Shown here piece after piece: positions 1,593 through 5,745 of a DNA stretch of 64,000 nt. A program made the translations under genes and the position numbers. The DNA lies in the NCBI GenBank assembly GCA_000004695.1, contig CM000154.2, positions 1,984,001-2,048,000 on the forward strand. Reading direction: 5' to 3'. Numbering within the stretch: the stretch's first letter is position 1; each line of letters opens with the position of its first letter. Below the pieces are notes generated by a model. That model had not been told where the DNA came from and made no database searches. It worked only from the letters and a program-made list of their open reading frames with translations. This DNA is from Dictyostelium discoideum. Lineage: Eukaryota.

Positions 1593-4500
1593 ATGGGTAA
1601 AAAGAAAATTGATATAAATACAAGAGAAGATTTATTTTTATCATATTATAAAGAAATTGAAAAAAATAAATTTGATCTTTTAAAAATTTGCAGTGACAAA
1701 AATTTTTCAAAATCAAATTTTTTAAAAGCAGTTCACTGTTTATTTTCATTATCATATTTTTGTAAAATTAAAGATGAAAATGAAGAAGAAGAAGGAAAAG
1801 AAGAAGAAATAAATGATTACAAAGTTAAAAAAAGCACAACTGGTAATTATTACAGAAATTCCGAAGGCAAATTATTTAAAAAATCAAATGAAAAAGATCA
1901 AATAGATGATGTTTCCATATTTTATAAAAGATTACCAACAATCCAAGATTTTAAAGACACATATGACAAATAGTGGGTTTTTTTATTTTTTTTTTATTTT
2001 ATTTTTTTATTATTTATTATTTAATAAATTAACTTTTTTTTTAATTATTATTATTATTTATTTTTAAATTAGTGAAAATTGTTTAAATTCAGTTTATTAT
2101 ATTATTAGAAAAATTAAATTATTACATTTGGAATATTTTTGGGAAATTTTAGCTTCTTGTTATGGAACGATATCATTTATTAAATTTTTTAATATATTTT
2201 CAAATGAAATATTTTCACCAAGTGAAAATGGAGATTCAGTTTTTATAATGGTTGGAAAATTTTTTAGAAGAAAAGTAAGAGCAGAGACACATTATGATTT
2301 AATATTTTTAAAAATCATATTGGCCAACGCATCAATACCAATGATTTTAAAACTTGGAGTTAAAGATATAGGTAGATTTACAGAAAAGGAGGATATTATA
2401 GTATCATATTATAGAAACTTTTCAATAATTCATTCACTTAGATTTGATAATGTTAAAGAGTTTGCATTAGTTTATAAAACTTTAAAGAATAATTATCCAT
2501 CAAAAAAAAAAAAAAAAATTACACTTTTTGAAGAAAATGGGAAAATTAATGTTAAAACATCAAAAAAAGATTTAATGCTATTCGAATTTGTTTGTAAATT
2601 TGATTGTGTTAAAATTTTTAAGAAATATTTTTTACCAAAACCTCAAATTATTAATAATAATGATAATAATGAAATGTTAGAATGTATTAGTAGTGGATCA
2701 TATTCAGGATTTGATGAAAAGAGTAAACGTAAAATTAGAATTTTTTTTTCAATATGTTGCAGACAAATTTCACCTAAAATCTTAAAATGCATTGTCGATT
2801 ATGTCAAGGATGATATTGGTTTTTTAGATTTACAAAATAGGCAAGATATTTACATTGGAGATTCAGCACCTGAAAAAGTTTTATTTCTAAATTGTTTTTT
2901 TGGTAATCATAAAGAACAACGTGTTATAGATTTTTTTAATCTCCTTACATCCAAATCAATTATAATATGTAATACTATTAAAGAGAAACCGGAACTTTAT
3001 GATTATCGTTATATTACATTGTCAACTGTTGATTCTACATTTTATTTTTCTGATAGTCATAAAGGTGCTGATTTTGGTGTTTACACTGATGAGATTAATG
3101 TTATTATTAATAATGATGATATTGATTATGATTATATTGGTGATGATGATAATGATGAAGAAATAGAAGAAACAAAAGATTATGGTAGTAGTAGTAGTGA
3201 TATTGATGATTTTTATAATGTATTTGAACCAAAAGCATCAATGATACCAAATATATTGGATTCTTGTAGTTTGGAAATACTAAAAGCATATATTCAAAAT
3301 ATAACTGGAAATGGTTTATTCAAAATAAGTCCATCATTATTTTTAGCACATGATGTAACTAGATTAGTTAGAAATCCAAAACCAAAAACAGAAACTGTTG
3401 TTAAAATATTGGAATTCATTAATACAATTTCAAGACTTTCAGAATTATCAACCAACGGTGTTCCTTTCACTTTTTTAACTAATAGATTCGAAATTGTCAC
3501 TAGTATAATTATGTCATTACATGATGAACGATCTATTTCAAATTCTGTTGAACCAGTTCAATGGTTACGTGCACTTGCTCCATTTGTTTCAAATGATGAA
3601 ATGAAATTAATTATATACAAAGTTAGAACTCTTTACAACTATGAACCACATTCAAATGGTGAAATCAAATATACCGAATTAGTTAGATTATTTGATGTTC
3701 AATATCTTTTAACTAAAGGTAAATTTTCACTATCTCAATTTAATGGTTTTGAAACTTCAATTTTTTTAAATCCAAAATTACTTGATGGTACTATTAATTC
3801 AAATATTTTAAATTCAATGATTATTAAAGACAAAGAAAAACTAGACTTAAAAGAATTATTTTTTAAAGAAAAACCACTTTCAGAAGCTGAACTTAAAGAA
3901 AAATTTGAAATTGCTACAAAAAATGAAAAAGAGTTATTGGACCAATTAAAAAAAGAAAATGATGCTGAAAAATTAAAAAAGAAAAATAAATTAAAAAAAC
4001 AAAAAAATCAACAACAACAACAACAGGCTAAACAACAAGCTCAACAACAAAAACAACAACACCAACAAAATATTCAACAAAATTATGAAAATCAACATAT
4101 TGAAGACCAACGAAAATTTAACCAACAAACCAAAGGTCGACCTATCTCTCCTTCATCAATTCAAAACCAAAATTTAAATCCAACTTTATTACAAAATCAA
4201 AATCAAACTTCAAACCCAACACCAAATTTAGAGTCAACAAAAAAAGCAACACCGACAACAACAACAACAACAACAACAAATTCCAATACATCAGCAATTA
4301 TAAATGAAATTAAAAATCAAGATTTAAATCAACAACAAAATATAACAGAAAATATAAATGAAATATATGATGTTTCAATTGGTAAATTTAAATTTAATAA
4401 AAAAGAGTCAAATATATTGGGTAGAGGATCAAATGGTACATTAGTATTTAAAGGTATTTGGAATAATAGAATACCAGTAGCAATTAAACAAATGCAAAAG

Positions 4501-5336
4501 ATGTTTAACCCATTAATTAGTAAAGAAATTGAAATTTTAATTGGTTTAACCAATAAAAACTTAAATTTAGTTGGATACATTGATCAAGAAGAAGATGAAA
4601 ATTGTGTTTACCTTGGTTTAACTCTATGTGATGGTTCATTACAATCTTTATACGATCAATCAAAATTAAATGAATTTATTAATCAAAATAATAATCAAAA
4701 TAATAATAATAATAATAATAGAGTATTGGATTTAATTATTGGAATGATAAATGGTGTAATATTTTTACATGATCAAAATATAGTTCATAATGATTTAAAT
4801 CCAAGAAATATATTAGTAAAAGATAATAGATTAATAATTTCAGATTTAGGTTTAAGTAAGATGAATGTTAGTTCAACTTATAATTTCTCAACAAATGCAA
4901 TTCCAACTGGTCAAGATGGGTATCATCCTGTTGAAGTACTTTTAGAGAAAAGAAAAACTAAATCAGTTGATGTTTTTTCTTTAGGTTGTTTAATTTATTT
5001 TATAATGACAAATGGTGCTCACCCATTTGGTGATAAATTCTCAAGACTTCGTTATATCACTAAAAGCAAATACAATCTATCTCAATTATCAAATTTAAAT
5101 TTAGTGGCAACTCATTTAATTGAATTGATGATATCATATGATGAGAGTAAAAGACCGACCCTATCATCAGTTTTAAAACATCCTTTGTTTTGGGACAGTT
5201 TAAAGAAAATTAAGTTTTTAGAATCTTCTTTACGTTTATTGGGTGATCATGATTTTAAGAAATTCAATATCAATAAAATATTAATTAGTTGTAATAGTAA
5301 TAGTAGTAGTAGTAATAGTATTTGTAATAGTAGTAA

Positions 5337-5371
<35 letters not shown>

Positions 5372-5745
5372 GTAGTTGTAAAATTAGTAGCAGTAGTTGT
5401 TATTGTGTACCATTACCTTGGAATCAATCACTCGATTATCAATTAGTGGATTCTTTATCAAATCAAATTGAAAAAAAAGTAGCATCTTATAAATTTGATC
5501 AACTTCATGATTTAATTCGATTCATCAGAAATACTCTACAACATTATAATCAAATTTATAGAGATTTAAAACAAATTTTACCAAATAGTGATATTTTAGA
5601 GTCATTAAAATCACAACAGTCGGCTTTAAATTATTTCGAATCCAAATTTCCAACTCTAATAATTTTTTTATTTAATCATTTTAGTGCTATACCTGAAATT
5701 AAAAATTCTATCCATTTTTCAAATGATACTTGTTCAATTTTTTAA
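1593..5745 (+). CDS. IRE1/RNase-L-like protein kinase with C-terminal KEN (kinase-extension nuclease) domain, no luminal sensor domain (Dictyostelium irl family). Proposed exons 1593..1972 and ~2073..5745
   Basis: Seen in sequence: the main exon (ORF-track frame 2128..5745) contains a kinase core (GRGSNGTLVFKG..VAIKQM, HNDLNPRNILV, ISDLGLSK, GTxGYHPVE) followed by a KEN-like tail (HPLFWDSLKKIKFLESS...RFIRNTLQHYNQIYRDL). The 2128 'start' is TTG, so the real start is upstream. ORF 1593..1973 begins with a true ATG, and its TAG stop is split by a GT (GTGGGT) at 1973. AG at 2071-72 then restores the downstream frame (phase 2, TA+T). Exon 1 assignment is inference (non-consensus donor). Confidence 0.65.

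Follow-up and report, generated by a model that had tools for sequence, protein, structure and literature searches.

We describe irlE, a gene on the forward strand of a 64,000-nucleotide (nt) stretch of Dictyostelium discoideum DNA (contig CM000154.2, positions 1,984,001 to 2,048,000; hereafter the window, whose own numbering we use). Its product, IrlE, belongs to a dictyostelid-specific Irl clade of soluble IRE1-family proteins and is most likely a cytosolic RNase gated by nucleotide binding and oligomerization. The gene is not new: it is a known, annotated locus, correctly read here and functionally unstudied.

Gene Identity and Structure

The locus corresponds to the already annotated D. 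discoideum gene irlE. From end to end, the spliced product of 1350 amino acids (aa) matched DDB_G0288803 / XP_636529.1 / UniProt Q54IE8 of D. discoideum AX4 at 100% identity; the database names this entry 'Probable serine/threonine-protein kinase irlE'. As to the gene model (Table 1), the open frame at 2128..5745 (+) stays open in the 5′ direction, in frame, as far as an AG acceptor at 2072, and a 126-codon open reading frame at 1593..1973 terminates at a GT donor at 1973. Joining 1593..1972 to 2073..5745 gives a coding sequence of 4053 nt in two exons. A preliminary description of this DNA had assigned the span 2073–5745 to the gene; this is a real exon, the second one, but the gene starts at 1593.

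The window's DNA is extremely AT-rich (GC content 10–30%). An irlE orthologue, P0002, is present in a second assembly under the name D. discoideum (GCA_054859385.1, locus L002); its product is 89% identical overall, and the position of the intron is kept. No irlE paralogues were found within the 64-kb window.

A Kinase–KEN Protein without a Membrane Anchor

In IrlE a protein kinase domain is followed by a domain of the kinase-extension nuclease (KEN) type, the order that characterizes the IRE1 family. The match to the Pfam Ribonuc_2-5A profile spans aa 1209–1343 and profile positions 4–124 of 127, with an E-value of 4.2e-19 and 69 bits against a cut-off of 23.3; the scores of both the kinase and the KEN domain are far beyond chance. 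In the PDB the best matches were all IRE1, with the yeast protein Ire1 at E 2.5e-48 and human IRE1alpha at E 6.5e-41. A phmmer search of the PDB with the KEN part only gave weak matches, IRE1 at E 0.04 and RNase L at about 1; the KEN assignment rests on the Pfam profile. The first KEN helix aligns with IRE1 from HPLFW onward, and a Ser-rich insert (aa 1199–1236, nt 5287..5400) interrupts the domain.

The topology typical of IRE1 in the endoplasmic reticulum (ER), that is, a signal peptide, a luminal sensor and a single transmembrane (TM) segment, is absent from IrlE. We found no signal peptide at the N-terminus (MGKKKIDINTRED), no Pfam match to a luminal domain, and no clear TM segment, since every stretch of 17 residues or longer contains at least one D, E, K, R, H, N or Q. 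The preliminary description, too, had seen neither a signal peptide nor a TM segment; our hydropathy scan agrees with it, as does the lack of a membrane anchor in the Irl proteins according to the Dictyostelium kinome paper (Goldberg et al. 2006). The portrayal, in the preliminary description, of an IRE1-family kinase–KEN protein without a luminal sensor likewise holds, given the Pfam matches to both domains and the lack of signal peptide and anchor. [quoted passage not shown]

The most hydrophobic 19-mer of the protein (aa 203–221, LIFLKIILANASIPMILKL) has a mean Kyte–Doolittle score of 1.9, above the usual threshold of 1.6, and could in principle make IrlE a membrane-anchored sensor, with this stretch as a TM or hairpin segment. 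We regard this as very improbable: the segment holds two lysines and sits in the middle of a constrained, predicted-helical N-terminal region, no signal peptide precedes it, Dictyostelium globular domains are generally rich in I, L and F, and the kinome analysis saw no TM domain in any Irl protein.

The RNase Site Is Intact

A MAFFT alignment of IrlE took in human IRE1alpha and yeast Ire1 along with human RNase L and three homologues from Acytostelium. RFIRNTLQHY of IrlE aligns with RALRNKYHHF of yeast Ire1, and the residues Y1266, R1279, N1280 and H1284 fall in the same columns as Y1043, R1056, N1057 and H1061 of the yeast protein and Y892, R905, N906 and H910 of the human one. These yeast and human numbers follow published usage and agree both with the alignment and with chain 3SDJ (H1061N) found among the PDB matches. 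The KEN-like domain with an RNxxxH motif that had been proposed at the outset is therefore confirmed by the Pfam match and by the aligned motif, and all four catalytic residues (Y/R/N/H) are conserved. KEN domains are classed as HEPN (PMC3710099), and the stretch R1279-N-T-L-Q-H1284 fits the HEPN Rx4-6H motif in the form Rx4H. As for the all-alpha KEN fold, it appears in IrlE solely as the helical content of a low-confidence model (predicted local distance difference test, pLDDT, 38).

By every available sequence test the RNase of IrlE is likely active: KEN scores strongly in Pfam, both the Y/R/N/H tetrad and the Rx4H motif are intact, the ratio of nonsynonymous to synonymous substitution rates (dN/dS) in the KEN domain is 0.21, and the motif is kept in Acytostelium. 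The preliminary description had envisaged a soluble pseudokinase–KEN protein serving as a regulated cytosolic endoribonuclease. With the RNase residues kept, the latter part is the natural reading of IrlE; the pseudokinase part is not shown, as discussed below.

The Irl Family in Dictyostelia

In the Dictyostelium kinome, IRE forms a seven-member family, all with RNase(L) domains, of which only IreA is membrane-bound (Goldberg et al. 2006). In the tree of those authors IrlE is the sister of IrlC/IrlD and the Irl clade the sister of IreA; their Table S2 credits IrlE with a good kinase domain, predicted active ('a'), with the motifs VAIK, HNDLNPRN and DLG. IrlA–F all read HNDLNPRN and DLG and were predicted active, while IreA reads HRDIKPHN and DMG. 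The gene itself, the expansion of its family, the missing membrane anchor, the RNase(L) domain and the motif sequences have been publicly known since 2006; what the preliminary description contributed in calling IrlE a pseudokinase was an added hypothesis, not a discovery.

The paralogues IrlA, B, C, D and F share with IrlE a long non-membrane N-terminal region followed by kinase and KEN, as well as HNDLNPRN and DLG; VAIK occurs in IrlB–F and VAVK in IrlA. IrlE itself carries the full dictyostelid Irl signature, namely HNDLNPRN with D[LM]G, a KEN domain and no membrane anchor.

Word-indexed searches for homologues returned only IrlE itself, a strain variant and three proteins of Acytostelium subglobosum (P0003, P0004 and P0005). 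The latter are 44–47% identical to IrlE over the kinase–KEN part and have the RNxxxH motif and an identical HNDLNPRN, but DMG in place of DLG. Their N-termini are short or different, P0003 having none at all, and in P0005 Pfam detects ankyrin repeats (Ank_4 at 25.0 bits, the cut-off being 22.7).

Two of these genes deserve separate comment. The P0005 gene (L001 6001..8190) encodes ankyrin repeats, then an HNDLNPRN kinase, then KEN, which is the domain order of RNase L in a dictyostelid; three ankyrin-repeat genes come after it. Its G-loop region is spread over three frames (IIGR / GSNGTL / VYKGVWCDKVP / VAIKQM) with two apparent frameshifts, suggesting assembly errors or a pseudogene. In the case of P0004 (L003 ~3300..3500), the annotated protein lacks RNxxxH, and the genome encodes ...VKDLVRCIRNTKLHHHQLY... 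in another frame inside a modelled intron, so that the gene model splices out the stretch with CIRNTKLHHH. The apparent loss of the RNase motif from P0004 is a gene-model artefact.

An Unusual Catalytic Loop

In the MAFFT alignment, HNDLNPRN of IrlE matches column by column the yeast Ire1 loop HRDLKPQN and the human IRE1alpha loop HRDLKPHN. Together with the alignments to the PDB matches, this confirms what had been assigned by eye in the preliminary description: the catalytic-loop Lys is really replaced by Asn, and DFG reads DLG. IrlE departs from IRE1 at four positions, N1033 (the HRD Arg), N1036 (Lys), R1038 (His/Gln) and Q1074 (the P+1 Thr), and hence does not have the canonical RD Ser/Thr loop HRDLKPxN. 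It does keep K932, the alphaC E945, D1034, N1039, D1051 and GxGxxG, and its activation segment is of full length, unlike that of RNase L. Because the HRD Arg is lost (N1033), control through an activation-loop phosphate is unlikely, and we consider IrlE a non-RD kinase in which such control has probably been lost.

HNDLNPRN is invariant in all six Irl proteins of D. discoideum and in the three from Acytostelium, which are only 44–47% identical to IrlE; it is thus a conserved family signature, a selected variant and not a product of decay. Nor can DLG be taken as a mark of decay, since IreA, the D. discoideum orthologue of IRE1, has DMG and its kinase domain is reportedly required under ER stress (a 2018 review states that it is needed to survive such stress and names IreA as the single orthologue of the IRE1 sensor).

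The preliminary description had called IrlE a pseudokinase. By sequence, a pseudokinase is recognized when the beta3 Lys, the Asp of HRD or the Asp of DFG is missing (PMC4718504); under this Manning/Hanks definition IrlE is not one, as K932, D1034 and D1051 are all kept, and the kinome paper scored it as active. That description had also held that loss of the Lys is what sets RNase L apart from IRE1. It is true that the RNase L loop is HQDLQPQN; however, the inactivity of RNase L has been put down to a C-lobe and an activation loop that are non-canonical, rather than to the Lys by itself (PMC4718504). The altered catalytic loop, taken by itself, does not show that the IrlE kinase is dead, and a pseudokinase is a reasonable hypothesis not established by the sequence.

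Taken strictly, this hypothesis would make IrlE a counterpart of RNase L, which binds ATP canonically without kinase activity (PMC4718504): there would be no phosphotransfer, and the domain would act only as a nucleotide-binding scaffold for RNase dimerization. We hold this to be possible, at somewhat less than an even chance. The equivalent of Lys168 and the HRD Arg are both Asn, in parallel with HQDLQPQN, and the P+1 Thr that pairs with the catalytic-loop Lys in Ser/Thr kinases is also gone. Moreover, K799N is one of the two changes in yeast Ire1(D797N,K799N), which is kinase-dead and still has a nucleotide-responsive RNase (PMC3082176), implying that an Ire1-type RNase needs no phosphotransfer. 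However, the yeast mutant combined K799N with D797N and did not carry the Lys-to-Asn change alone, and IrlE, unlike RNase L, keeps the catalytic Asp, the DFG Asp, the beta3 Lys, the G-loop and a full activation segment. It also has an Arg at the tyrosine-kinase-type position two residues downstream, and the Irl kinases were predicted to be active in the kinome paper.

This Arg also bears on another reading, in which IrlE would be a catalytically competent, atypical kinase, possibly tyrosine- or dual-specific, with phosphorylation as an output or a regulatory step beside the RNase. Tyrosine kinases and JAK JH2 replace Lys168 of protein kinase A (PKA) by a basic residue two positions downstream (PMC4718504). 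D-L-N-P-R-N of IrlE matches this tyrosine-kinase-type arrangement (HRDLAARN), in which Arg takes over from Lys168, and the match goes along with the loss of the Ser/Thr-specific Thr201. Goldberg et al. (2006) pointed out that neither Ser nor Thr stands at PKA position 201 in the IRE members other than IreA, which might for this reason accept tyrosine; they considered this likely for the family except IreA. Every residue classically needed for catalysis is present in IrlE, and the whole loop is strictly conserved across Dictyostelia (IrlA–F and the three Acytostelium proteins). Conservation is nevertheless no proof of catalysis, as the loop of RNase L is conserved between human and pig and yet inactive (PDB chains 4OAU/4OAV and 4O1O read HQDLQPQN and DFD). 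In addition, two usual positive charges are missing from the IrlE loop, and no kinase activity of any Irl protein is reported in the searchable literature. We see an active kinase of this kind as somewhat unlikely when set among all the readings considered; as between a mere nucleotide switch and an atypical, possibly Tyr- or dual-specific, kinase, the odds are roughly even.

Comparison with IRE1 and RNase L

The preliminary description had labelled the protein RNase-L-like as well as IRE1-like. The former label does not fit well: IrlE is nearer to IRE1 (29–33% identity) than to RNase L (24%), and ankyrin repeats were not detected in it. With IRE1 (yeast Ire1p, human IRE1alpha/ERN1, Dictyostelium IreA) it shares a kinase fused directly to a KEN RNase, the RNase Y/R/N/H residues, the G-loop, the VAIK Lys, the alphaC Glu, the catalytic Asp, the Asn, the DFG Asp and a full-length activation segment. 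It differs from IRE1 in having no signal peptide, luminal domain or TM segment, and in the changes HRD Arg to Asn, Lys to Asn, +2 His/Gln to Arg and P+1 Thr to Gln.

RNase L, the vertebrate RNase dependent on 2′,5′-oligoadenylate (2-5A), resembles IrlE in being a soluble cytosolic protein with an N-terminal sensor (a putative one in IrlE), a kinase-like domain and KEN, with a loop devoid of the RD Arg and the Lys (HQDLQPQN vs HNDLNPRN) and with the RNase R/N/H residues conserved. On the other hand, the ankyrin repeats through which RNase L binds 2-5A were undetected in IrlE by Pfam at E ≤ 10 and by an ankyrin hidden Markov model (HMM), and where IrlE has DLG, a canonical G-loop and a full activation segment, RNase L reads DFD, its G-loop is degenerate and its activation segment is deleted. 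Dictyostelium is not known to have a 2-5A system. In its design IrlE resembles IRE1 or RNase L; it belongs to the IRE1 family in the kinase–KEN sense and to the published Irl clade, and has neither the ER-sensor features of IRE1 proper nor the ankyrin repeats found in RNase L.

The N-Terminal Region and the Pattern of Selection

Relatives of the N-terminal region were sought with aa 1–764 in an exhaustive phmmer search of 1.84 billion representatives, which matched only IrlE itself, and no Pfam domain appeared in the region even at E ≤ 10. Comparison with the paralogues used their first ~400 aa, as given in the kinome paper's Table S2. Among IrlA, B, C, D and F the N-termini show a detectable relationship (BLASTP 2e-13 to 1e-3), whereas the similarity of the IrlE N-terminus to those of its paralogues, IrlC/IrlD included, is colinear and no more than marginal (BLASTP E 0.05; hhalign 135 columns, 24% identity, E 0.02). 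A profile built from the five paralogues gave 7.5 bits on the IrlE N-terminus, not above shuffled controls, and local phmmer was likewise marginal.

By eye, parts of this region looked like ankyrin helices, and ankyrin repeats were considered and then rejected, there being no ankyrin HMM signal. The home-made HMM, made from RNase L and consensus repeats, scored 22.6 bits on P0005 and found nothing in IrlE or in any D. discoideum Irl N-terminus.

Measured against the L002 orthologue, dN/dS was 0.14 for aa 1–480, 0.50 for aa 500–715, ~1.2 for the linker, 0.14 for the kinase and 0.21 for KEN, all of them values that rest on few substitutions (5–15 amino-acid changes per segment). The N-terminal, kinase and KEN parts are under purifying selection. 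The linker (aa 716–889) evolves without constraint and holds most of the length difference from the orthologue.

These figures bear on whether IrlE might be a decaying, functionless paralogue left over from the expansion of the IRE family. In the published kinase tree no Irl branch is longer than that of IrlE (0.35), no other N-terminus in the family is as divergent, and the protein has long low-complexity inserts, as might be expected of such a relic. But the 4-kb frame is intact in two assemblies with the intron conserved, all RNase catalytic residues are retained, and the low dN/dS (0.14–0.21) in the kinase, KEN and aa 1–480 is to be set against the ~1.2 of the linker. We give decay hardly any credence.

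Sequence Features and Surroundings of irlE

Table 1. Positions of irlE and of the parts of its product in the window
Feature	Position (nt)	Strand	Details
irlE exon 1	1593..1972	+	ATG at 1593; aa 1–126 plus two bases of codon 127
irlE intron	1973..2072	+	100 nt, GTGGGT...TTAG, very AT-rich
irlE exon 2	2073..5745	+	includes stop TAA 5743..5745
Orphan N-terminal region, exon-2 part	2074..3837	+	with exon 1 = aa 1–715; predicted mostly helical
Low-complexity K/E-, Q-, N-, T-rich linker	3838..4359	+	aa 716–889; from composition
Protein kinase domain	4408..5190	+	aa 906–1166; Pfam PF00069 Pkinase, E 7.8e-32
G-loop GRGSNG	4420..4437	+	canonical GxGxxG
VAIK	4477..4488	+	beta3 Lys K932
Catalytic loop HNDLNPRN	4786..4809	+	aa 1032–1039; HRD Arg to Asn, Lys to Asn, His/Gln to Arg two residues on, relative to IRE1
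DLG for DFG	4843..4851	+	aa 1051–1053
P+1/APE segment GQDGYHPVE	4909..4935	+	aa 1073–1081; equivalent of PKA T201 is Gln
KEN (HEPN-type)	5191..5721	+	aa ~1167–1343; Pfam PF06479 Ribonuc_2-5A
RNase active site	5488..5547	+	Y1266 (5488..5490); RFIRNTLQHY aa 1276–1285 (5518..5547) with R1279, N1280, H1284

Downstream of irlE, 145 nt past its stop, ARAGORN identified a tRNA-Gln(UUG) gene at 5890..5962 (+). About 30 nt beyond this gene, at 5992..6002, stands GGTTCGATTCC, which resembles the external B-box that often follows Dictyostelium tRNA genes. Still in the intergenic DNA downstream of the tRNA gene, at ~6250..6305, a near-perfect 24-nt inverted repeat was seen by eye (AAAAATGAAGATTGTGAATGTTGA, ~8 nt, TCAACATTCACAATCTTCATTTTT). 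The intergenic stretch 6500..7500 has an extreme negative GC skew, from -0.53 to -0.67, at a GC content of ~14%, with CACACACA and CTCAC motifs between long A/T runs. In the second assembly, the region upstream of the irlE orthologue (L002 861..3126) carries, on the opposite strand, a gene for a cytochrome-b5/fatty-acid desaturase fusion.

Proposed Mechanism and Significance

By homology to IRE1 and RNase L, the kinase-like domain of IrlE would bind Mg-nucleotide and serve as a dimerization and allosteric module, pairing two KEN domains into an active, metal-independent endoribonuclease that acts on cytosolic RNA. Catalysis would be performed by Y1266, R1279, N1280 and H1284, and the products would carry a 2′,3′-cyclic phosphate. 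Activation may come from the cytosol, through the orphan N-terminal region of ~715 aa, by ligand or partner binding or by oligomerization, and not through an ER-luminal sensor.

Several points weigh against this scheme, among them the small number of substitutions behind the dN/dS values given above. In the literature that could be searched, neither biochemical nor genetic work on an Irl protein came up. The AlphaFold2 models were unusable, with a mean pLDDT of 32 for the N-terminal part and 38 for kinase–KEN, both low because the alignments held just 2–5 sequences; mouse IRE1 did head the Foldseek matches of the kinase–KEN model (E 6e-6), but the TM-score of this match was 0.17, which makes it no structural evidence. 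Finally, because the N-terminal region has no recognizable fold or ligand-binding motif, its role as a sensor is purely something we infer.

A broader, and doubtful, idea is that the Irl proteins are the cytosolic RNase L counterpart of dictyostelids. They would carry out RNA decay triggered by stress or infection, combining a kinase-like/KEN effector, conserved and nucleotide-gated, with fast-diversifying orphan sensors, and the non-RD, tyrosine-kinase-like loop would be a functional adaptation. The pattern of sensor and effector, in which the effector is 44–47% identical to Acytostelium, the N-terminus has no detectable similarity, and one Acytostelium member has ankyrin repeats, fits such a counterpart without demonstrating it.

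If IrlE is indeed an active cytosolic endoribonuclease with a sensor of its own, the design of IRE1 and RNase L, in which a sensor at the N-terminus drives a kinase-like dimer gated by nucleotide and the dimer turns on a KEN RNase, would have been put to use again outside both the ER and the vertebrates, in a genetically tractable amoeba. The conserved HNDLNPRN loop would also lend itself naturally to testing how far an RNase switch of this kind depends on kinase chemistry.

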